Shown one piece after another: positions 1,251 through 56,607 of a DNA stretch of 64,000 bases (position 1 is the first letter of the stretch; each line of letters starts with the position of its first letter). The stretch is from contig DAOTUO010000002.1 in NCBI GenBank assembly GCA_034436595.1, positions 5,120 through 69,119 of the forward strand, written 5' to 3'. Source of the stretch: Anaerolineae bacterium. GTDB taxonomy: Bacteria; Chloroflexota; Anaerolineae; Aggregatilineales; Phototrophicaceae. A program made the translations under genes and the position numbers. The notes under the pieces are model-generated. The model did no database searches and was not told the origin of the DNA. It worked only from the letters and a program-made list of their open reading frames with translations.

Positions 1251-3647
1251 ATGATACCCGAAAAAACCCTGCAAACCCTAGAGTTAGATAAAATCCTAGA
1301 CAAACTTGCCACCTATACCACTTTTGGCGGTGGGGCAGATTTGGTGCGCCAATTGTTTCCTACCACCGACCTCCAAGAGGCGCAATTGTGGCAAAAAGAG
1401 ACAAGCGAAGCCCGTTTGTTGCTAGAAAATAAGACCAATGTCACACTCGGCGGTGTGCGTGATGTGCGCGATATAGCCATTGCCGCCCAACGGGGTGTGG
1501 TGATTGACCCGCCCATTTTGCAAGACATCCGCAATACGCTACGGCGTGGTATGACGATTAAGCGCACATTGGGGCGCATGAAATCTAGCTACCCTCTTTT
1601 GGCGAGTGTGGCAGAACTGCTAGAAGAATGTATCGATATTCAAGATGCCATCGGCAATGTGTTAGACGATAATAGCGAAATCAAAGATTCCGCCAGCCCA
1701 AAACTGGCGATTATCCGCAGAGACCTCAAAATCGCCTTTGAGCGCCTTCAAACCAAATTGCATCGCATCCTCAGCACCCCCACCAAAGCCCAATATCTCC
1801 AAGAGACCATCATCACCATGCGCGGTGGGCGTTATGTCGTGCCAATTAAAGCCGACCATAAGGGAAAAATACCGGGTGTCGTGCATGACTCATCATCCTC
1901 TGGTGCAACCTTATTTATCGAACCCCTCGAAACAGTAGAACTCAATAACCAATGGCGCGAATTTCAGATAGAAGAAGAAAAAGAAATTCGGCGCATTTTA
2001 GCCGCCCTCAGCGCCCAAGTGGGCGAACAAGCCGATTATATCGTACATAGTGTGGGCATCCTCTGTTATCTGGATTTTACCTTTGCCAAAGCCCGTTATG
2101 CCGATGATACCCGCTCTGTACAACCCATCCTTATCCCCTTTAAGCAACGCCCCAATAACCCCAATCATCCCGGAAGTACCATTTATCTAAAAGGCGCAAA
2201 ACATCCCCTACTCACAGGCAATGTCGTGCCATTGGATATTGAATTTGGCGATGAAACATGGGTGATGGTCGTCACGGGTCCCAATACGGGTGGTAAGACC
2301 GTCTCGCTCAAAACGGTAGGACTTATGGCACTCATGTCTCAGTGTGGCTTGCATGTGCCAGCAGAAGAGGCAAAACTCACGATATTCGAGGGCATTTTTG
2401 CCGATATTGGCGATGAGCAGAGCATTGAGCAATCGCTCAGTACCTTTTCTTCGCATATGCGAAACACCATCCAAATTTTGGACGACTGTAATGACCGTTC
2501 ATTGGTGCTATTAGACGAGATGGGCGCAGGCACAGACCCCGCAGAGGGTTCTGCATTGGCACGGGCGATTTTGACCACATTGGTCAATCGGCAAGTGACC
2601 ACGATGGTCACAACACATCACCCCGAATTAAAAATTTATAGCGTAGAGACCCCTGGTGTGCGTAATGCCAGTGTCGAGTTTGACCTCGACACGCTCGCCC
2701 CCACCTATCGCTTGGTGGTCGGGCTACCCGGTCGGTCTAACGCGCTGGCAATCGCCACCCGTCTGGGATTGAGCGCCGAAATTATCACATTGGCGCGGGG
2801 CATGGTCGCTATGGAAGATTTGGTGGCAGATGACTTGCTAGACGAAATTCACCGCACCCGCGAGACCATCCGCAGAGAACACGAAGATGCAGTGATGCTA
2901 CGCCAAGAAATTGAGGAGCAGAATGATGCGCTCCAAGCCCGCCTTGACCAAATTGAGGATGAGCGCCGTAATATCATCAGCGTGACCCGCCGTAATGCCG
3001 AAGAAGAACTAAACGATGTCCGCAAAGAGATAAAACGCCTACGCGAAGATATGCGCCGTGCGGGATTGCCACTCGAAAATCTGATGGCGGTACAACAAGC
3101 GGCGGAAAAAATCGCCCAATACAACGCACAACCGATTGTAAATGTCACAGAAGCCGTAGAACGCCCCGCCTTTTTACCCCGTTTGGGTGATGTGGTGTGG
3201 CTAGAGACACTCAATGCAGAAGGCACAGTGATTGAACTCGAATCCAATGGTGCGTTGGTACAAGTGGGGTCGTTGCGTGTGCGCGCGGGGATGAATGAAT
3301 TGCAACGGCGCACCAAAAGCCAAAAACGCGAGATTAAGCGTGGGCATGTGCGCCAATATGAATCGGATACCATCACCTATACCGCCGTCAAATCGCCCGG
3401 TTTAGAACTGGATTTGCGCGGGCAACGGGTGGAATCTGCCATAGAACGACTAGAACAATATGTGGATGCCGCCTATAGTTCTGGGTTGCCCTTTGCGCGG
3501 ATTATTCACGGCAAAGGCACCGGCGCATTGCGAAAAGCTGTGCGTGACCATGTAGAAAGTCATCCCCTCATTTCTAAGGTCGAGACAGCACACCCCAATG
3601 AAGGGGGCGATGGTGTGACGGTCATTCACCTCACCCCACAGATATAA
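1251..3647 (+). CDS. mutS2: Endonuclease MutS2 (MutS-family ATPase with C-terminal Smr domain)
   Basis: Walker A GPNTGGKTV, DEMGAGTDP motif, coiled-coil linker, C-terminal Smr (LDLRGQRVESA, IIHGKGTGALRKAV). ATG at 1251 directly follows the in-frame TTG at 1248 used by the ORF track. Confidence 0.93.
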   Translation: MIPEKTLQTLELDKILDKLATYTTFGGGADLVRQLFPTTDLQEAQLWQKETSEARLLLENKTNVTLGGVRDVRDIAIAAQRGVVIDPPILQDIRNTLRRGMTIKRTLGRMKSSYPLLASVAELLEECIDIQDAIGNVLDDNSEIKDSASPKLAIIRRDLKIAFERLQTKLHRILSTPTKAQYLQETIITMRGGRYVVPIKADHKGKIPGVVHDSSSSGATLFIEPLETVELNNQWREFQIEEEKEIRRILAALSAQVGEQADYIVHSVGILCYLDFTFAKARYADDTRSVQPILIPFKQRPNNPNHPGSTIYLKGAKHPLLTGNVVPLDIEFGDETWVMVVTGPNTGGKTVSLKTVGLMALMSQCGLHVPAEEAKLTIFEGIFADIGDEQSIEQSLSTFSSHMRNTIQILDDCNDRSLVLLDEMGAGTDPAEGSALARAILTTLVNRQVTTMVTTHHPELKIYSVETPGVRNASVEFDLDTLAPTYRLVVGLPGRSNALAIATRLGLSAEIITLARGMVAMEDLVADDLLDEIHRTRETIRREHEDAVMLRQEIEEQNDALQARLDQIEDERRNIISVTRRNAEEELNDVRKEIKRLREDMRRAGLPLENLMAVQQAAEKIAQYNAQPIVNVTEAVERPAFLPRLGDVVWLETLNAEGTVIELESNGALVQVGSLRVRAGMNELQRRTKSQKREIKRGHVRQYESDTITYTAVKSPGLELDLRGQRVESAIERLEQYVDAAYSSGLPFARIIHGKGTGALRKAVRDHVESHPLISKVETAHPNEGGDGVTVIHLTPQI

Positions 3648-9104: not shown

Positions 9105-10574
9105 TTATAACCCCAATTTTTTGCCTTCATCCCAAAATTTATCGAGTTCATCCAGCGTATAATCGGTGAAAGGCTTATGGCTCTCTGCCACCCGTTTTTC
9201 GACAAATTCAAACCGCCGATAGACTTTTTCATTGGCTTTTTTCAGGGCAGATTCGGGGTCAATTTTCATCCACCGCGCCCAATTGACCAACACAAAAAAC
9301 AAATCTCCCACCTCTTCCATCAAGTGTGCGGGGTCATTTTCGGTTTGTGCCTCTAACACCTCTGCGAGTTCTTCACGCACTTTATCCACCACGCCTTGCG
9401 GGTCTGCCCAATCAAATCCCACCCGCGCCATGCGGTCTTGATATTGCGTGGCGACCATCAACGCGGGCATCCCTTTTGGCACACCTGCCAACATGCTCTC
9501 AAACTCGGCACTCTTATCGGCTTTTTCTGAGGCTTTAATCGCCTCCCAATTGGTGACAACTTGGTCGGCATTTTCGACTGTCACTTCCCCACTCGCGGGT
9601 TTCCATACATGCGGGTGACGGCGAATCATCTTGGTGTTGATATGACGCAACACATCGGTCATATAAAATTCGCCTTCATCAATGGCAATTTGGGTATGCA
9701 AAACCACCTGCAATAACAAATCACCGAGTTCTTTGGCGAGTTCATCGGGATTATCATCTTCAATGGCTTCAATCGCCTCATACGCCTCTTCTAGCATGTA
9801 TTTAATCAGGCTGGTGTGCGTCTGCTTGATGTCCCACGGACACCCCTCTGGTGAGCGTAGATGGGCGACAATCTCTTGAAATTGCTCAAAGCTACTCATC
9901 TCCCCCATTGCGGGTAAATAGAGCGATGTCGTGTGTCCGATATGCTCACTTTGGTCAATGGCGTAGAGGAGCATTTTTTCTGCGATTTCGTCCGATGTCC
10001 CCGCCGAGTGGATGAGTGTCACCTCAAATTCATCGGGATATTGATTCATCAGCGTGAGTTTTATATCAGAGGCGACCATCTGGCTATACACCTGCCCGAT
10101 GATGGCGGGATAATCTGGGTTAATCGGCGGATGGTGCATGGCAACAAGGTCTAACCCGTCTAATAACTGAATCCCGTCTAGCGCATCGTAGCCAATCAGC
10201 CGTAACATCGGCTCGATATAGCTAATGCCACTGACAATTTCCACAGGGATATTTTCGGATTTGGCGCGTGCCATAATTTTGGCGGGTGTAGATTCTCCCA
10301 CAAACGGGTCTCCAGGGACGGCATATACCACATCGCCATTTTTTGCCTGTGTGATAAGCACCTCGACAATGCGCTCATACACCGTCTCAAAGGCATCATT
10401 GGTATTATAAATATCATCAAACGAGTGATAGGTGGGGTTTTGGGGCAAATGTGGCACACATTGGTGCAAATTTGTCCGCAGATATACGGTTTTGGCGTTC
10501 TCTAGCACGCGCCACGCCTTGCGCGATAAATCGTCAATGTCGCCCGGTCCAAGCCCGACTATGGTAATGGTCAT
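9105..10574 (-). CDS. mazG: YabN-like fusion: tetrapyrrole-methylase-like domain plus tandem MazG NTP pyrophosphohydrolase domains
   Basis: 489 aa. N-terminal ITIVGLGPGDIDDLS methylase-type motif. Two MazG EExxE/D helices (MLEEAYEAIEAIEDD, LGDLLLQVV; VREELAEVLEA, MEEVGDLFFVLVNWAR). Confidence 0.85.
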   Translation of the reverse strand: MTITIVGLGPGDIDDLSRKAWRVLENAKTVYLRTNLHQCVPHLPQNPTYHSFDDIYNTNDAFETVYERIVEVLITQAKNGDVVYAVPGDPFVGESTPAKIMARAKSENIPVEIVSGISYIEPMLRLIGYDALDGIQLLDGLDLVAMHHPPINPDYPAIIGQVYSQMVASDIKLTLMNQYPDEFEVTLIHSAGTSDEIAEKMLLYAIDQSEHIGHTTSLYLPAMGEMSSFEQFQEIVAHLRSPEGCPWDIKQTHTSLIKYMLEEAYEAIEAIEDDNPDELAKELGDLLLQVVLHTQIAIDEGEFYMTDVLRHINTKMIRRHPHVWKPASGEVTVENADQVVTNWEAIKASEKADKSAEFESMLAGVPKGMPALMVATQYQDRMARVGFDWADPQGVVDKVREELAEVLEAQTENDPAHLMEEVGDLFFVLVNWARWMKIDPESALKKANEKVYRRFEFVEKRVAESHKPFTDYTLDELDKFWDEGKKLGL

Positions 10575-10643
10575 AAATCCCTCATCATCATTTTTGGGGC
10601 ATCATCAATTGCCCTGTTACACAAACTATTTTACCCGAAAAAC

Positions 10644-10670
10644 AAAAAATCCCCGTTGTGGGGATTTTTT
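10644..10670. terminator. Bidirectional intrinsic terminator downstream of rpsI
   Basis: AAAAAATCCCC GTTGT GGGGATTTTTT, a perfect palindrome with A/T runs on both sides, 11 nt after the rpsI stop. Confidence 0.8.
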
Positions 10671-10680
10671 GAGACATACT

Positions 10681-11073
10681 CTAGCGTTTGGTATAGGTTG
10701 GGGCTTTACGCGCACGCTTGAGACCTGGTTTCTTCCGTTCTTTCTCACGCGAATCACGGGTGAGATAAGTGGCGGTACGCATACGGGGGCGCAGTTCTGG
10801 GTCAATCTTCAATAATGCCCGTGCGACACCGAGTTTAATCGCATCGCGTTGTCCGCTAATGCCACCACCATTCACATGAACGGTCATATCATAGCTACTC
10901 TCTTGCCCAATGAGGGTAAGTGGCTCGACCATGATTTCATAATCGCCCGCGCGGGGCAAATAATCACGACCATCTTTGTCGTTGATTAGCACATTGCCTG
11001 TGCCATTTGGGTACAAGCGCACACGGGCAGATGCCGATTTACGCCGTCCAATCCCTTCATAATATTGCGACAT
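10681..11073 (-). CDS. rpsI: 30S ribosomal protein S9
   Basis: 130 aa. GIGRRKSASARVRL and C-terminal KKPGLKRARKAPTYTKR. Follows rplM. Confidence 0.97.
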   Translation of the reverse strand: MSQYYEGIGRRKSASARVRLYPNGTGNVLINDKDGRDYLPRAGDYEIMVEPLTLIGQESSYDMTVHVNGGGISGQRDAIKLGVARALLKIDPELRPRMRTATYLTRDSREKERKKPGLKRARKAPTYTKR

Positions 11074-11087
11074 GGGTTATTTTCTCC

Positions 11088-11534
11088 TTAAAGTTCCAAC
11101 GTCAATGATTGCGGATTTTGTGCGGCGTGTGGATGCTCTGAACCAGCATAAATCTTCAGTTTTTTAATCATCTGACGACCCAAGCGGGTTTTTGGCAACA
11201 TGCCACGAATGGCAAACAAGAGTGGACGTTCTGGGAATTTTGCCAGTAAGTCGCGCAAATTGGTCTCTGTAAGACCACTAGGGTATTGGGAGTGGTGATA
11301 ATACATCTTGTCATCCATACGCTTGCCAGTGACATGAATCTTGGCGGCATTAATGATGACGACATAATCGCCAGTATCCAAATTTGGGGTATAAATGGCT
11401 TTGTTTTTGCCCTGCAAAACGGGAGCAATCTTAGAAGCCAAACGCCCAAGGGTTTGCCCTTCGGCATCAATTATCCACCAACGACGCTCGCGCTCGATGT
11501 CGGTGGGGGTTGTTACAAACGTCTTAATTCTCAT
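11088..11534 (-). CDS. rplM: 50S ribosomal protein L13
   Basis: 148 aa. RRWWIIDAEGQTLGRLASKIAPVLQGKNKAIYTP is a typical uL13 N-terminus. Confidence 0.97.
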   Translation of the reverse strand: MRIKTFVTTPTDIERERRWWIIDAEGQTLGRLASKIAPVLQGKNKAIYTPNLDTGDYVVIINAAKIHVTGKRMDDKMYYHHSQYPSGLTETNLRDLLAKFPERPLLFAIRGMLPKTRLGRQMIKKLKIYAGSEHPHAAQNPQSLTLEL

Positions 11535-44872: not shown

Positions 44873-46624
44873 ATGAGACATCGTTTATGGTTTATCGTAT
44901 CATTTGTGTTGATTGGTTTCGGGATATTTCTCCCACAAGCAGTCACAAAAGCAGCCACCGTCACCTATACATCGTGTCCGACTTTTGCGACTTTAGAAGC
45001 GGATGCCAGCACATCAGGCATAATTACCTTCAATGTAGCGGGGGATTGCATCATTGTCTTTGATTATGAAATTGAAATTGATAGTGCCGTGACCATCACC
45101 AATATCGGCAGTGATGTGATTTTTGATGGCTTTGCATTTACCTATCACTTTGATATTTTTCCTTCTGGCAATTTAACCCTCAATAACCTCAACCTCTATA
45201 ATGGGTATTGTTGTGAGGGTGGGTCTATTTATAACGAAGGCACCCTCACTGTCACCAATAGCCTATTCGATTATAATTTTGCAAGTTTATATGGTGGCGC
45301 GATTTATAACGCAGGCGGGACTGTTTTTCTCACCAACACCGATTTTGCAGATAACGGAGCAGGTTTAGATGGTGGCGCGATTTTGAATGACGGTGGCAAT
45401 CTGACGATTGTCGGTGGCTTATTTGATAGCAATATTACAGGAGAGTATGGTGGGGCAATTGCGGGAGATGGTGCGATGAACATCTCTGGCGCATATTTTG
45501 AAAATAACGAAGCCTCCAGTATGAATGGTGGCGCAATTTATAATTTGGATGGCTCATTAACGGTGTCTAATAGCACCTTTGAGGGCAATTATGCCAATTC
45601 TGGTTATGGTGGTGCCATTAACCAAGAAGATGGAACAACCATCATCACAGGAAGCACTTTTTATGATAACTATGCGGATGATGGTGGTGCGGTGAATAAC
45701 GACTATGGCACGATGACCATCAGCCACAGCAGTTTTTATTTCAACACTGCATCGTATGGTGGGGCAATATATAATTTTGATGGTGCGGTTTTGAATGTGA
45801 GTAACAGCACCTTCTATGGCAATGAAGGTTATACTCAGGGAGGTGTATTTTATAATAACGATGCAACTGCTACCTTCACGCATGTGACAATGGCAAACAA
45901 CACTTCTCCACTTGGCGCGACATTACATAATTATGATGGTGCTTCTACCACGATAATCGCCAGTATTTTATCGGGCGGGGATTGTAATTTGGAAAGTGGC
46001 TCAATCAATGATGGTGGCAATAATATTCAGTTCAATGCACCCGGTTGTGTTGGCACAGATGCAGACCCACTGCTTGGGGCGTTTGCGGGTGGTGTGATGT
46101 ATCCCGCGTTGGGGTCTCCTGCCATTGATATTTATGGCGCACCCTGTTTGGTCGCAAATGACCAGTTAGGGACAGTCCGTCCCAACGGCACGGGTTGCGA
46201 TGCAGGTGCGACAGAAGGCGATGGTTCTACGGTGGTGGTGGTTGCGCCGAGTGTGACGGGTCCAGAGGTGATTGGGTGTGTATTCGATACCCCCAATGGC
46301 ATGGCAATCGGCAATGTGCCAGATAACACCTATTGCACCGTTCTCATGCGAAATGGTGGTGTGGTCAATTATTCGGGTGCTGTCCCAGCCGAATTGATTG
46401 GGCTTGGTGTGATTTTTGCGGTGGATGTTTATCGTTTAGAGGGTGGTCAGAGTATTCAGGAATTCCCAGATTATGGTCAAGTATGCTTACGTGGCTCTGG
46501 TCGCTTATTTTATATGGATGCGCGGAATATGCCCCGTTATTCTGTCGAAATGCCCACTGAACGCGTAGATGGCATGACCTGTGCATGGATTCCCGCACCG
46601 GGGACATTGATTTTGACGAATTAA
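44873..46624 (+). CDS. Secreted parallel beta-helix protein with Pmp-type (GGAI / FxxN) repeats
   Basis: 583 aa. Signal peptide, then at least nine ~23-25-aa units such as GGAIYNAGGTVFLTNTDFADN, GGAIYNLDGSLTVSNSTFEGN and GGAIYNFDGAVLNVSNSTFYGN. Confidence 0.7.
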   Translation: MRHRLWFIVSFVLIGFGIFLPQAVTKAATVTYTSCPTFATLEADASTSGIITFNVAGDCIIVFDYEIEIDSAVTITNIGSDVIFDGFAFTYHFDIFPSGNLTLNNLNLYNGYCCEGGSIYNEGTLTVTNSLFDYNFASLYGGAIYNAGGTVFLTNTDFADNGAGLDGGAILNDGGNLTIVGGLFDSNITGEYGGAIAGDGAMNISGAYFENNEASSMNGGAIYNLDGSLTVSNSTFEGNYANSGYGGAINQEDGTTIITGSTFYDNYADDGGAVNNDYGTMTISHSSFYFNTASYGGAIYNFDGAVLNVSNSTFYGNEGYTQGGVFYNNDATATFTHVTMANNTSPLGATLHNYDGASTTIIASILSGGDCNLESGSINDGGNNIQFNAPGCVGTDADPLLGAFAGGVMYPALGSPAIDIYGAPCLVANDQLGTVRPNGTGCDAGATEGDGSTVVVVAPSVTGPEVIGCVFDTPNGMAIGNVPDNTYCTVLMRNGGVVNYSGAVPAELIGLGVIFAVDVYRLEGGQSIQEFPDYGQVCLRGSGRLFYMDARNMPRYSVEMPTERVDGMTCAWIPAPGTLILTN

Positions 46625-49332: not shown

Positions 49333-49361
49333 CGGACATACGACCCATTTTTTGCTATAAT
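49333..49361 (+). promoter_or_regulatory. Extended -10 promoter of the TIR operon
   Basis: CGGACA (49333-49338, part of a REP-like GGCGGACATAC copy), 17-nt spacer ending TGC, TATAAT (49356-49361). Confidence 0.5.
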
Positions 49362-49397
49362 GCTTCACATATTTGAGTGATTAACTGGAAAAAAACC

Positions 49398-50789
49398 ATG
49401 TCCCATATATTTATCAGCTATAGCAGAGAAGATGTTGATTTTGCCCGTTATTTACGAGCGCAATTTGAAACCGAAGGGTATCGGGTATGGATGGATGAAC
49501 AGCGTCTACATCCCGGTAGCGATTGGTGGGACGAAATAGAGAACAACATCATCACCTGTAGCGTATTTATGGTGGTGATGTCGCCCAATTCGGCAGGGTC
49601 TAAGTGGGTGAAGCGCGAAATTTTGTGTGCAGAAGACAATCATCGCCCCATTTTCCCCATATTACTGGCAGGTAAGGTATTTGGCAGATTAGCCGATTTG
49701 CAAGCCGAAAATATGATGGGGGGCATCACTGCCAAATTGTCGCAACGGCTATTGGACAGCCTCAAAGGGCTTTTATCCACCAATACCAACACCCCCCTAA
49801 TGGTCAAAATCACCAAAGCCAATATCAGCCAATTCCCCGCCGATGTCATGGTCTTAAAATATTCAAAAGGCTTTTTGGGCGCGAGTATGCACGTTTTTAA
49901 CAGCCTACAACAAGTTGGTACAACCATTAATACGGCAGAACTGACAGAAATTGGGTCATATCAACTGCTAAATACTCAAGATGCTCTCACGGCACCATTA
50001 GTCTTGTATGTGTCCACACCCTATCCACGCCAATTCAAATATACCGATTTAACTGCCTTCATCAAACGGTCTTTTATCATCCTCAAAGAACAAAAACCCG
50101 ATATTCAGCATGTTGCCATGACCATTCACGGCATTAAATTTGGACTAGATGAACGCGAAGCCTTCCTCACCCAGATGAACGCCATTTTTGAGGCGTTTAT
50201 CTCTGGCGATGTCCCGCCAAAATTAGAGCGTGTGAGCATTATCGAAAACGACGCAGGACGTGCGACGCGATTGATTGATATTGCCGATGAATTCACCGAT
50301 ATGCGCGAGGACATAACCACTGTCGAAAATGACATGGGGGCGTATCGTCTGGATATACAACGCGCTACCACCGAAATACCCGCCATCGTCATTTCCGATA
50401 CCAAGCCCTATATTTTGGCAATCATGCCCCCCGCTGATAGCTATGATGATTCGTTTTATTATGGCATCCAACGCCCCACCCATACCTATGGCTTGTTATG
50501 TGAACGTGAATCGGCAGAATTGCTCATCGAAATGCCCGCCGACATCGAAAATTTACAAAGCCGGATCGAATTGGCGCGCGGGGTGATTATTCATCTGGAT
50601 GATAAGCCACTCACGCCCGATTTTGCCATGCAAATTGGCTTAGTATGGGGTGCAAAACGCCCCACCCTATTTATCTGCCAATCGGACAATACCGCCCATC
50701 ATTTGTTGCCCAAAGATGCCATTCATACTTATAAAAAAATATCTGAATTAGAGATATTTATTGCCGATTATCTCGGAGGCATATCATGA
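49398..50789 (+). CDS. Three-domain TIR protein (TIR / macro-like alpha-beta module / nucleoside 2-deoxyribosyltransferase-like module)
   Basis: Trimmed to ATG 49398. TIR: IFISYSREDVDFARYL...VWMDEQRLHPGSDW...SKWVKREIL. The middle and C-terminal assignments rest on pattern similarity only (see findings). Confidence 0.85.
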   Translation: MSHIFISYSREDVDFARYLRAQFETEGYRVWMDEQRLHPGSDWWDEIENNIITCSVFMVVMSPNSAGSKWVKREILCAEDNHRPIFPILLAGKVFGRLADLQAENMMGGITAKLSQRLLDSLKGLLSTNTNTPLMVKITKANISQFPADVMVLKYSKGFLGASMHVFNSLQQVGTTINTAELTEIGSYQLLNTQDALTAPLVLYVSTPYPRQFKYTDLTAFIKRSFIILKEQKPDIQHVAMTIHGIKFGLDEREAFLTQMNAIFEAFISGDVPPKLERVSIIENDAGRATRLIDIADEFTDMREDITTVENDMGAYRLDIQRATTEIPAIVISDTKPYILAIMPPADSYDDSFYYGIQRPTHTYGLLCERESAELLIEMPADIENLQSRIELARGVIIHLDDKPLTPDFAMQIGLVWGAKRPTLFICQSDNTAHHLLPKDAIHTYKKISELEIFIADYLGGIS

Positions 50790-51313
50790 CCGAAAAATGG
50801 ATTACCACCAAAGCCGATTTATTGCCCCAGCTTGAGGAACAATGGGACGCGCTTCATGCCCTGTTCAACATCCTCACAGACTATCAACTCACCCAGATTA
50901 AAAATCCTGATGGGTGGGCAATCAAAGACCATGTGGCGCATCTCACCGCATGGGAAAATTCGGTGATTGCCTTGCTGACGGGTATCCCCCGACATGAGGG
51001 GCTTGGGATTGCACAGGCGTTGTATAATAGTGATGATTTGGATGCTATCAATAAGGCAATTTTTGACATGCACAAAGACGACCCCACCCATGTGGTTTTC
51101 CCGGAATTCCATAAATCCCATGAAAAATTATTGTCGCTGATAGACGGGCTATCCGATGAAGATTTGAATAAAGGATACGGTCACTTTTTGCCCACCGAAA
51201 CAGGCGGGCATTTGCCTGTTATCAACGTGATATATGGCAATACGGTGCATCACTTTAAGGAACATTTGGGGTGGATAGAGGCGATGTTGGCACGGCACAA
51301 TAGCGAGAAATAA
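50786..51313 (+). CDS. DinB / ClbS(DfsB)-like four-helix-bundle protein
   Basis: 175 aa. KADLLPQLEEQWDALHALF, GWAIKDHVAHLTAWE, NTVHHFKEHLGWI. ATGA overlap with the TIR gene; GGAGG 6 nt upstream. Confidence 0.55.
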   Translation: MTEKWITTKADLLPQLEEQWDALHALFNILTDYQLTQIKNPDGWAIKDHVAHLTAWENSVIALLTGIPRHEGLGIAQALYNSDDLDAINKAIFDMHKDDPTHVVFPEFHKSHEKLLSLIDGLSDEDLNKGYGHFLPTETGGHLPVINVIYGNTVHHFKEHLGWIEAMLARHNSEK

Positions 51314-51317
51314 AGAC

Positions 51318-52181
51318 CTATTTGGGCAGAGTTTTTATAAAATCGGCAATCCGCGCTTGGTCATCGGCTGAATATGCCGATGGATTTTTGAGTTCAGAAG
51401 CAGGATTACCCAATTGCTGAAATAAGCGACTGCCATTATAAACCTGCTGATAGGCTTGCCCTAAATCCAAAATAAATTTATCTTCCCCTTCTAATGGCAC
51501 ATAAAATTTAGGCAATGGGTCAAGTAACCCGATTTGGTAAATATCTACTTTGCCCACGGAATCATGCGCATGGGGGTCGGTGACAATGGCATAATAAGGT
51601 GTGCTATTGAGCATATCAGGGTAATCGGGAATATAAGGTAAAATAGGCTGTGTTTGATGTAAAAAGTCAATTTCCACTAAATTCAATCCTGCCCATAAAG
51701 ATGGCTCGCGTTTTTTGATATATGGCGCATAATAACTAGATGGCGGTTTATTGGCAGGTGATAATAATTCGATACGGGTCACTGGCGTTGAATTTAAGAC
51801 AGAATCTTTGAATTTATAGATGACCAAAGCCTGCACAGCATCCTCTGGTGTCAATAAATAATCTAAATTCCTTGTCATGGTAGGGGCAGTCACTGTTGCA
51901 GTTGGAATAGCGGACTGATATCTATCAGAAGTGCCTCGAATCAAAATATCAGGTCTGATGCGTTCTGTTGTAGGTGAATCAAACTCATCCAATAAATTAA
52001 TATGTGCTAATTGAAGTGATTCTTCGTTGGATGTGTAATAACCATCTGGCAAGCTAATATCAATCACATCAGATAAATGTGATAAATATTTATTATGGAA
52101 GCCATGCCACCCGCGGGGTTGCAAATAACTATTCAAATGGGCATTCACACCGGGATATGGATTTCTGCCAGCCATCATCAA
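51318..52181 (-). CDS. DUF4058-family protein (restriction-endonuclease-fold-like)
   Basis: 287 aa. N-terminal NPYPGVNAHLNSYLQPRGWHGFHNKYLSHL matches the remembered DUF4058 opening (P-F/Y-P-G-x-D/N-x-Y-L...W..FH). RPDILI and IELLSPANK motifs. Confidence 0.65.
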   Translation of the reverse strand: MMMAGRNPYPGVNAHLNSYLQPRGWHGFHNKYLSHLSDVIDISLPDGYYTSNEESLQLAHINLLDEFDSPTTERIRPDILIRGTSDRYQSAIPTATVTAPTMTRNLDYLLTPEDAVQALVIYKFKDSVLNSTPVTRIELLSPANKPPSSYYAPYIKKREPSLWAGLNLVEIDFLHQTQPILPYIPDYPDMLNSTPYYAIVTDPHAHDSVGKVDIYQIGLLDPLPKFYVPLEGEDKFILDLGQAYQQVYNGSRLFQQLGNPASELKNPSAYSADDQARIADFIKTLPK

Positions 52182-55412: not shown

Positions 55413-56210
55413 TCAAAAAAGAGAAAGCTGTTTTGTTTCAGTTTTAGGAGGATAAAATACTCCTAAAACAACCCAAGAGTTATAGGGAAAAATTGTACCC
55501 ATAAAAAATTGAGTGTCTTTTTTAGGGTCACATAAATCATCAAGGTATTTCTTTTTAACACTTTCTGCGGCTTTTTCTTCACTACCTAATTTATCAACTT
55601 CCTTTAGAAAAAGTACCCCTAATTCCCAATCTTCACACATAGTTTTATGATAGCTTTTGCTGTCCTCACATTCAAAAATATATGAGAACTTATAAGGTAT
55701 CTTCTTAAGTGGCTTTGGTGGTTCTCCAAATAACTTTAATTGTCTATAAAGAGCTTCCCATTCAGGTTTCCACTCTCTGTCTGCTTCTTCAATTACCATG
55801 TCTATTATTTTACTAGGACGTACAATACCTAACGATGTTTTATCAATATCATACAACTCACGATATTGATTGACTGTATAGCGGGGTAATTTATCTATAA
55901 TTTCACGCCGTGCAGACCAATTATTGCTTGTCAGAATAGGTTTTCCCAAAGGTCTGATTGTTTCCAAATTAGGTTTACGACTCTCTTTACGATTATCATT
56001 CCCATGCCCTCGGGAGCCTAGTTCAACTTCAATCCATTGGTATTTATGAAATTTTTGTTCATTAGGACGATAACGATAATCTATCGGATATAAACGTACC
56101 CATTCTCCCTGTTTCGTAATCCCTGCCGTACACACCAGTTCTTGGTATCCTCTTGAAGGGTGAGGATATGTCATCACCGTTATTAAAACTTCTGTCTTTT
56201 CCACCTTCAT
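55413..56210 (-). CDS. Orphan 265-aa protein, partner of the ASCH gene; no family recognised
   Basis: Trimmed to ATG 56210 (MKVEKTEVLITVMTYPHPSRGYQELVCTAGI; AGGGGGA 4 nt upstream). An in-frame TAG lies just upstream of the ORF-track TTG. AT-rich codon usage. Confidence 0.7.
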   Translation of the reverse strand: MKVEKTEVLITVMTYPHPSRGYQELVCTAGITKQGEWVRLYPIDYRYRPNEQKFHKYQWIEVELGSRGHGNDNRKESRKPNLETIRPLGKPILTSNNWSARREIIDKLPRYTVNQYRELYDIDKTSLGIVRPSKIIDMVIEEADREWKPEWEALYRQLKLFGEPPKPLKKIPYKFSYIFECEDSKSYHKTMCEDWELGVLFLKEVDKLGSEEKAAESVKKKYLDDLCDPKKDTQFFMGTIFPYNSWVVLGVFYPPKTETKQLSLF

Positions 56211-56607
56211 AAGTCCCCCTAAATTCACTTGTGTAAAGCTCAAATTCTAATACCCACACGTCATAAGATAATTGAGATTTTGCCCCATGAATAATTTTCC
56301 ATGTTGCCAGAAATAATTCTGGTGAATCAAAACCCTCTGCAATTGCATCTGCATGATTGATAAGGTTCACTTGTTCACGCCTAATATTTATAAGCAAAAT
56401 TCGCGCAACCGATTTTTTGCCACGTCCGGGTTGTACAGCATAGGTTTTGCCAACTTGGTAAACTATTCTTTTACCAGATACAACACGATATATACCATCT
56501 TGAAAGGTCATTTTTTCATCAGGCTTAATCAAACGGCGTGTTTGCTTTTTGTACCCACATAAAACTTTATCTAATGTGTGTGCGAAAATCATAAATATCT
56601 CATCCAT
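56062..56607 (-). CDS. ASCH (PUA-like) domain protein
   Basis: HTLDKVLCGYKKQTRRL, GKTYAVQPGRGKKSVARILLINIRREQV, ADAIAEGF, VWVLEFEL. The last ~50 codons overlap the next gene out of frame. Alternative start at ATG 56592. Confidence 0.75.
   Translation of the reverse strand: MDEIFMIFAHTLDKVLCGYKKQTRRLIKPDEKMTFQDGIYRVVSGKRIVYQVGKTYAVQPGRGKKSVARILLINIRREQVNLINHADAIAEGFDSPELFLATWKIIHGAKSQLSYDVWVLEFELYTSEFRGTYEGGKDRSFNNGDDISSPFKRIPRTGVYGRDYETGRMGTFISDRLSLSS

Follow-up and report, generated by a model that had tools for sequence, protein, structure and literature searches.

A TIR domain joined to a conserved macro/NDT-like module in a protein of Anaerolineae

The window analysed here, a stretch of 64,000 nucleotides from an Anaerolineae bacterium (GenBank assembly GCA_034436595.1, contig DAOTUO010000002.1, positions 5,120 to 69,119 of the forward strand), encodes a protein of 463 residues in which a TIR domain is followed by a divergent macro-fold domain and by a domain that resembles nucleoside 2-deoxyribosyltransferases (NDT). 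Judged by sequence conservation, the macro and NDT-like parts are a single conserved module, here called the dyad, and not two independent ones. The dyad is widespread, and its macro half has no model in Pfam, NCBIfam or PADLOC. In the clade that includes the window protein, the Glu found at the catalytic position of NDT enzymes is absent while other residues of the putative pocket are kept. We tentatively read the protein as a self-contained TIR NADase of Anaerolineae controlled by a ligand-binding macro/pseudo-NDT module, a possibility that is weighed below against other explanations.

The gene and its TIR domain

The gene has an in-frame GTG at 49377, upstream of its ATG; the ATG start is supported by the relatives, which begin with MSHIFISYS in the family alignment. 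The existence of about 97 clusters of full-length homologs (approximately 450–470 aa, E = 0 to 1e-67), in addition to an identical protein (P0001), indicates that the gene is real and conserved. An AlphaFold model of the full-length protein, computed with the family alignment as input, consists of three folded blocks with a mean predicted local distance difference test score (pLDDT) of 88.5 and a predicted template modelling score (pTM) of 0.50. The gene and its parts are:

49398 to 50789, + strand: TIR-macro-NDT-like gene, stop codon included, 463 aa from the ATG (list of open reading frames)
49398 to 49778, + strand: TIR domain, residues 1–127 (Pfam TIR_2 over residues 4–104)
49617 to 49619, + strand: codon of Glu74 in SKWVKREIL, the position of the catalytic Glu of TIR NADases (codon checked)
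49794 to 50312, + strand: divergent macro-fold domain, residues 133–305 (Foldseek on the AlphaFold model)
50313 to 50408, + strand: linker, residues 306–337, disordered at 322–334 with pLDDT <50, variable and gapped in alignments
50409 to 50786, + strand: NDT/DRHyd-like Rossmannoid domain without the nucleophile Glu, residues 338–463 (domain model and Foldseek)
50631 to 50633, + strand: codon of Gln412 at the NDT-type Glu position (alignment with relatives; codon checked)

The initial annotation, made by a model from the sequence alone, had described a TIR layout with an S-x-W-x-x-x-E helix at the N-terminus, and the peptide strings that it quoted are all found in the translation of 49398–50789. 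The layout is borne out by Pfam, whose TIR_2 profile (PF13676) matches residues 4–104 with E=1.9e-23 and 83.7 bits against a curated cut-off of 28. Within the string, Ser68 and Glu74 occur in 64/64 sequences of the family alignment, and position 70 is Trp in 43, Phe in 16 and Tyr in 5 of them. The Glu of this helix is the catalytic residue in TIR NADases. By these marks the domain is a true member of the TIR family that carries all sequence hallmarks of an NAD+ glycohydrolase; it is probably an NAD-cleaving enzyme, and likely an active one.

The best sequence matches of the TIR domain in the PDB are the TIR-APAZ protein of SPARTA, TIR-STING and SARM1, and those in PADLOC are Aga_TIR and SAVED_TIR, with ThsB lower. 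E-values from the two collections are 2.7e-17 for SPARTA TIR-APAZ, 1.6e-10 for SAVED-TIR and 1.5e-6 for the ThsB signal generators. In sequence, the window TIR is thus nearest to the NAD-depleting effector TIRs, ahead of the signal generators of Thoeris.

A divergent macro fold

For residues 130–463 of the window protein, Pfam gives no match at E<=0.1, hence no Macro profile, and PADLOC, NCBIfam and a phmmer search of the PDB return nothing over the same residues. Since the profile libraries are silent here, the domain assignment relied on structure models and on relatives that lack the TIR domain, 15 of which (303–353 aa) were aligned over residues 131–463.

Foldseek searches of the PDB with the AlphaFold model give as top matches Af1521, macroH2A1.1, PARP9, PARP14 and MacroD2, and more than 40 macro structures are matched in all (E~1e-7, target template modelling scores of 0.61–0.76), in agreement with the initial annotation, which had placed a macro domain at residues ~135–300. 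A viral structure library leads to nsP3/Mac1-type macro domains, as single-domain matches only. At the sequence level the macro part has weak matches to Peptidase_M17_N and to 2dx6 (E 0.02–0.9), both of which we take to be macro folds. On the evidence of the model, the macro module is a member of this family by its three-layer alpha/beta/alpha fold and not by sequence profile.

Compared with classical macro domains (Af1521, MacroD, macroH2A, viral Mac1), the window family shares the fold, the initial GD(I) and, weakly, a Gly loop that corresponds to loop 2. In the weak alignment with 2dx6 (E=0.85), GD(I) falls on GDIT, L-K-Y-A on NAAN and T-I-H-G-x-G-F-G on the LLGTGVGG loop. The family is distinguished by L-K-Y-A with an invariant Lys where classical domains have NAAN, by F-x-G-A-D in place of the GGG loop, by a signature of its own (H-G-x-G-F-G-L-D-E-x-E) and by the lack of a Pfam Macro match. 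The claim of the initial annotation that the Gly-rich phosphate loop is missing therefore holds for one loop and not for the other: loop 1, of the GGG type, has shrunk to the single invariant Gly161, but loop 2, with the family motif T-I-H-G-x-G-[FY]-G, is present in the window protein as TIHGIKFG and is the part aligned, weakly, with 2dx6. The conserved pocket motifs comprise GD/N142, D149, K154, G161 and T242-H244-G245...D251-E252-E254. The GD motif is present in 125/145 dyads without TIR; the window protein has Asn at position 142, where classical macro domains have an Asp that contacts the adenine.

An NDT-like domain without the catalytic-position Glu

Modelled alone, residues 334–463 reach a pLDDT of 93.4 and a pTM of 0.88. 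The top Foldseek match of this C-terminal model is the NDT of Chroococcidiopsis (8qc0, E=1.7e-6), accompanied by other NDTs and DNPH1 and then by TIR domains. The profile PF05014 does not match the window protein itself but matches 15/16 sequences in the alignment of the TIR-less relatives, with 20–40 bits against a cut-off of 28.8, and there is a weak profile match to the CMP hydrolase MilB over the E-x-G motif. The assignment of residues ~340–463 to an NDT-like pattern in the initial annotation is upheld by these matches, as is its reading of a Gln at the nucleophile position: the window protein has DFAMQIGLVWG where relatives have NVYLEVGYAWG, which puts Gln412 at the NDT-type Glu position.

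The module is therefore an NDT/DRHyd member by fold and not by profile, from which the catalytic-position Glu is absent. With NDT, DNPH1 and MilB (PF05014, DRHyd) it has in common the fold and, in its relatives, the strand-1 “AMPF” and the “...E-x-G-[YW]-A-x-G-x-x-P” layout. It differs from them by Gln412 in place of Glu in the window protein and by the macro module that, in this family, always lies N-terminal of the NDT-like domain. Among the Foldseek matches is an engineered E88Q NDT with bound nucleoside (8pqq), which suggests by analogy that a Glu-to-Gln change can retain nucleoside binding; we infer that the same change abolishes catalysis.

The dyad as a family

When 1.84 billion representatives were searched with a dyad profile, 1,059 of them matched at E<=1e-30. 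The best 150 of these 1,059 are mostly stand-alone proteins of about 320–350 aa, and 42 carry extensions. Half of the extensions (21/42) are TIR domains; the others are EAD7, EAD1 and EAD11 (effector-associated domains), a bacterial Death-like domain (bDLD1), CHAT, SEFIR-TIR, DUF4062, a Ser/Thr kinase, HD and HTH. The initial annotation had spoken of two ligand-sensor modules. A role in ligand sensing is plausible; their independence is not upheld, as macro and NDT-like domains form one dyad that mostly retains the Glu and looks enzyme-like. In the literature, neither a macro-DRHyd dyad nor the order TIR-macro-DRHyd was found described in the parts of the sources that were available, a search that did not extend to Burroughs et al. 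2015 and a 2020 J Bacteriol paper.

The NDT Glu is present in 137/145 dyads without TIR versus 12/112 TIR-fused dyads, the latter having Gln in 72, Glu in 12, His in 8 and Lys in 6. The idea that TIR fusion causes the loss of the Glu was rejected as a general rule, because a neighbour-joining tree requires about 4 steps of change in the Glu state versus about 13 for TIR fusion and because other TIR-fused lineages mostly keep the Glu. The loss is concentrated in one clade of 91 members, including the window protein and confined almost entirely to Anaerolineae/Chloroflexota, in which the position is Gln in 68, His in 8, Lys in 5, Leu in 4 and other residues in the remainder, but never Glu. At the same time, D149, K154, G161, T242, H244, G245, D251, E252, E254, D351, C368, E369, R370 and G414 are more than 90 % conserved both in TIR-fused dyads and in those without TIR. 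Since the Glu is missing from the clade while the other pocket residues stay above 90 %, its sequence pattern is that of a pseudoenzyme that has kept its pocket. The window protein itself retains about 39 of 50 highly conserved dyad positions, at 35–40% identity.

The genomic contexts of stand-alone Glu-type dyads are heterogeneous and no recurring partner was seen among those examined. Phage and plasmid collections contain no full dyad, only matches to the NDT domain. A single examined context of a stand-alone dyad resembles a conflict-system neighbourhood, namely L091:1162-5275, where the Glu-type dyad P0106 lies between an FGE-sulfatase (FGS) protein and an unannotated protein of 628 aa.

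Distribution and gene neighbourhood

Full-length homologs occur in about 40 species-level genomes, nearly all of them labelled as Anaerolineae or other Chloroflexota (Aggregatilineales, Phototrophicaceae), a lineage of filamentous bacteria; the exceptions are one metagenome-assembled genome titled “bacterium” and one titled “Bacteroidetes”. The window gene sits between a pair of M16 peptidase genes and glyQS. A 73%-identical ortholog (locus L004) occupies the same slot with other small neighbours, and this position is fixed in the orthologs of 71–73% identity.

An association of the homologs with defence islands, the absence of which the initial annotation had named as counting against its own reading, was not found in 38 genomes: a PADLOC scan of 137 flanking open reading frames (ORFs) shows no enrichment in defence genes, on which ground the hypothesis of a defence island was rejected. 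The only PADLOC matches in these flanks are paralogous TIRs, “mad2” hits that are probably generic methyltransferases, and one apparently kinase-type protein. Moreover, the 38 genomes have no conserved neighbour gene for making a signal.

A recurrent neighbour is instead a PF01553 acyltransferase and/or S-adenosylmethionine (SAM)-dependent methyltransferase cluster, present in 25/41 loci. The corresponding ORF lies directly downstream on the same strand in 21/38 cases, 14 of them with an overlap of exactly 4 nt, which marks many loci as translationally coupled to an acyltransferase, and a hexapeptide acetyltransferase cluster is found, mostly upstream, in 20/41 loci. The neighbourhood may reflect either a functional linkage, for example acyl-ADP-ribose chemistry, or mere synteny. 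Since the acyltransferase linkage is absent from the window protein's own clade, it is not obligatory. In many Anaerolineae (L015–L047; e.g., L015:11431-12024 and L020:11407-12009) the neighbour is a PlsC-like acyltransferase of about 200 aa with an HTSNWD motif and the 4-nt overlap. It is often followed by a SAM methyltransferase of about 290 aa (CMAS/UbiE-like), and the two are fused into a protein of 487 aa in L045 (11422-12885).

Paralogs of the TIR-macro-NDT gene, in tandem or nearly so, are present in L014, L016, L024 and L030 (e.g., L016:8403-9863 and 10001-11374). The homologs P0014 and P0041, for each of which the longest contig measures 37,170 bp, may sit on one contig. In addition, L051–L089 contain further Anaerolineae TIR proteins with an N-terminal HIFISYS[RK] and other C-termini, including the FGE-sulfatase/FGS fusions P0104, P0114, P0117 and P0120, which indicates a lineage-specific expansion of this type of TIR.

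Relation to named systems

As the initial annotation had surmised, this domain order was found in no named system, PADLOC and NCBIfam matching the TIR part only. The window protein belongs neither to Thoeris nor to SPARTA, CBASS or the EAD-adaptor systems, since each of these has a defining feature that is missing here.

The TIR-SAVED and TIR-STING proteins of CBASS and SARM1 (ARM-SAM-TIR) also unite a TIR NADase with a nucleotide-binding regulator in one chain, and the window TIR is closest to this class. Their sensor, however, is SAVED, STING or ARM, whereas the window protein has the macro/pseudo-NDT dyad. The SAVED_TIR model covers only the TIR part of the protein, and the flanks contain no CD-NTase/cyclase or other signal synthase. 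A stand-alone TIR-SAVED protein is reported to act without a cyclase by sensing a nucleotide made by the host. As for SPARTA and other short pAgo systems, the Aga_TIR model of PADLOC covers residues 3–83 only and there is no Argonaute gene nearby.

Like Thoeris, the protein brings together a TIR domain, a macro domain of the kind known to receive TIR products, and a domain of the TIR-DrHyd-SLOG class whose relatives include the SLOG sensor of type I ThsA. In type II Thoeris, a macro domain is the receptor of the TIR product His-ADPR; for the TIR-DrHyd-SLOG class, inactive members are described that act as nucleotide-binding sensors (PMC9503650). However, Thoeris is a two-gene operon, while the window has a single gene without a membrane or SIR2 effector. 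No conserved effector neighbour of the kind found in Thoeris types I–XI occurs in the window or in the 38 homolog loci. The ThsB HMMs match weakly, and with the ThcB4 model of NCBIfam (Thoeris type III) the protein reaches 36.5 bits, the cut-off being 220. Types V–XI were defined in a survey that explicitly left out stand-alone TIR proteins.

The work on EAD/Death conflict systems of multicellular bacteria (Kaur, Burroughs, Iyer, Aravind 2020, 2021) points to further likenesses: sister dyads carry EAD1, EAD7, EAD11, bDLD1, CHAT and SEFIR; TIR, DRHyd and Macro are named as effector domains; and the host of the window protein is a filamentous member of the Chloroflexota. In these proteins, effector domains and EADs are alternatives at variable termini, and TIR, DRHyd and Macro are each listed among the nucleotide- or NAD-processing effectors of multicellular bacteria (PMC7159879 and PMC8195603). 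The window protein itself has no EAD or bDLD match in Pfam, such adaptors being confined to sister dyads, and no gene for a STAND or vWA-MoxR NTPase lies in its neighbourhood.

A possible mechanism and its rivals

TIR-based NAD signalling is common to bacterial, plant and animal immunity, and the known bacterial receptors of TIR products are few (SLOG, macro and some newer effector domains). In the mechanism that we tentatively favour, the dyad would bind a nucleotide instead of turning it over, most likely a ligand that contains ADP-ribose (ADPR) or is related to NAD, and may also aid self-association. Occupancy by the ligand would govern TIR-TIR assembly, leading to cleavage of NAD+, so that the cell would stop growing or die within its filament. 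In its logic the protein would resemble SARM1, TIR-SAVED and TIR-STING, but another sensor would take the place of theirs. The lack of a conserved partner gene that could make a signal would leave three sources for the ligand: the metabolism of the cell, an invader or, in a feedback, the TIR itself. Besides the effector-type TIR, the pseudoenzyme pattern of the clade, the nucleoside bound by the E88Q NDT and the nucleotide binding described for inactive TIR-DrHyd-SLOG members, a sensor role for the dyad is favoured by its fusion to enzymatic outputs (CHAT, kinase, HD, SEFIR-TIR), which is typical of sensor modules; the stand-alone TIR-SAVED protein is a precedent for doing without a signal-making neighbour. 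A more far-reaching version, which we regard as distinctly improbable, takes the dyad as a receptor or processing module for an NAD-derived molecule on many outputs; the dead Anaerolineae form would then read the ADPR-type product of its own TIR, giving a self-amplifying “one-protein Thoeris” suicide switch for cells of a multicellular filament.

A number of observations weigh against a ligand-controlled NADase. As most dyads are stand-alone and retain the catalytic-position Glu, the ancestral dyad looks, from its sequence, like an enzyme and not like a sensor. Because TIR-fused lineages outside the 91-member clade keep the Glu in 12/21 members, a TIR joined to an active dyad is likewise a viable design. 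Loss of the Glu is essentially one event and its association with TIR is statistically light; moreover, the drift of this position within the clade fits simple decay as well as binding. The window protein departs from the family at conserved pocket positions (D142N, D163S, Y415L), with R219T and G262A as further changes at conserved dyad positions, and the pTM of the full-length model means that the geometry between domains is not fixed by it. Furthermore, its fusions to EAD and Death-like domains suggest that the dyad may sit where effectors sit and may be one itself. Finally, the gene is syntenic, has been inherited vertically and often forms an operon with an acyltransferase gene, and its flanks show no defence enrichment.

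Several of these points would be accounted for by a three-step NAD-processing enzyme, an explanation that we consider rather unlikely. TIR would cleave NAD+ to ADPR or a derivative, the macro domain would bind and process it, with K154, H244, D251 and E252 as possible catalytic residues, and the NDT-like domain would hold the base or ribose. The product would be a signal, a toxic metabolite or a fuller destruction of NAD, and the dyad an effector or processing module. Such a role suits the enzyme-like, mostly stand-alone dyads with Glu, and the approximately 13 separate TIR-dyad fusions, mostly with Glu, would suggest metabolic channelling from TIR to dyad. It would also be unusual for a pure binder to keep the polar residues of its macro pocket under strict conservation, and the fusions to EAD1/7/11 and bDLD1 are in keeping with the listing of TIR, DRHyd and Macro as effectors in PMC7159879 and PMC8195603. 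However, in the window clade the Glu position, drifting among Gln, His, Lys and Leu, implies that the cascade lacks one step or more, the macro-hydrolase motifs NAAN and GGG are missing, and there is no nearby gene for a receptor or effector of the product. The dyad might alternatively be no more than a scaffold for oligomerisation, or a decayed relic, its NDT-like part dimerising the TIR and its pockets binding nothing relevant. NDT-family enzymes are obligate oligomers, and both the variable Glu position within the clade and the extra substitutions of the window protein at family-conserved positions are compatible with this explanation, yet a scaffold would need none of the conserved dyad positions that are retained (K154, H244, D251, E252, D351, C368, E369 and R370 among them), and we hold it to be very unlikely.

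It is also unlikely, if somewhat less so, that the protein has no part in conflict or immunity and does housekeeping or regulatory work particular to the Anaerolineae lineage, either in NAD/ADPR homeostasis or in something connected with envelope or lipid metabolism. The fixed slot between the M16 peptidases and glyQS, the acyltransferase, methyltransferase and acetyltransferase neighbours, the 137 flanking ORFs without defence enrichment and the lack of a full dyad on phages and plasmids all fit such a protein, as does a GC content (0.455) near the genome value (0.479). On the other hand, a TIR that has kept the catalytic-position Glu would burden the cell if it worked constitutively as a housekeeping enzyme, the acyltransferase linkage is missing in the window clade, and tandem paralogs and the partners of the sister dyads (EAD, Death-like, CHAT, SEFIR) are typical of conflict systems. 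In multicellular bacteria such systems may, reportedly, be dispersed instead of being gathered in islands.

The significance of the protein depends on which explanation holds. The dyad is repeatedly joined to TIR and to cell-death-type domains, and the natural, “substrate-trap-like” Glu-to-Gln clade marks a key position. Should the dyad prove to bind or process a molecule derived from ADPR, NAD-centred immunity would gain a new class of receptor or enzyme, in a single-gene system that is simple to handle in vitro. If its role is metabolic, the protein would be a rare housekeeping TIR in which the catalytic-position Glu is conserved.

Local elements and neighbouring genes

The elements immediately around the TIR gene are:

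49333 to 49361, + strand: promoter-like site CGGACA-17-TATAAT with a TG extended -10 (consensus scan, 10/12 matches; pattern only)
50786 to 51313, + strand: DinB_2/DUF1706 gene, 175 aa, 3' of the TIR gene (Pfam DUF1706 6e-20, DinB_2 2e-11)
51361 to 51383, + strand: terminator-like hairpin with T-run, 3' of the DinB gene (pattern scan; the number of such patterns in the region equals the shuffle expectation)

The start of the DinB gene overlaps the stop of the TIR gene (ATGA), and a GGAGG Shine-Dalgarno sequence lies within the end of the latter. Because of this arrangement the two genes are probably co-translated, and they are probably co-transcribed as well. Nevertheless, the DinB/DUF1706 protein was rejected as a functional partner and is probably not one, since its gene occurs only in near-identical contigs and is missing from the 73%-identical ortholog (L004) and from all more distant loci. 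The whole window was scanned for tRNA genes and, at the gathering threshold, for Rfam families, and neither was found.

A protein of 276 aa encoded at 55413-56243 on the - strand matches PDC-M19B, a candidate defence family of PADLOC (E=3e-83); it has no Pfam or NCBIfam match and no obvious adjacent partner of the M19A type. This homolog, 4.6 kb downstream, was rejected as a partner of the TIR protein because it lies on the opposite strand and beyond glyQS, in an interval that differs in L004. There, the interval between glyQS and pdxS holds seven other small genes (DUF2283, DUF2726 with a Zn-ribbon, and others) and looks like a variable hotspot. A DUF4058 protein of 287 aa (51318-52181, - strand, E=4e-24) is encoded in the space from the DinB gene to glyQS; in L007 a second DUF4058 gene (2268-3161) lies some 4 kb upstream of a gene distantly homologous to the TIR gene. 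Immediately upstream of the M16 pair, at 44873-46624 (+ strand), a protein of 583 aa with Chlamydia-PMP-type repeats is encoded, which is conserved in L004 and is probably a secreted beta-helix protein.

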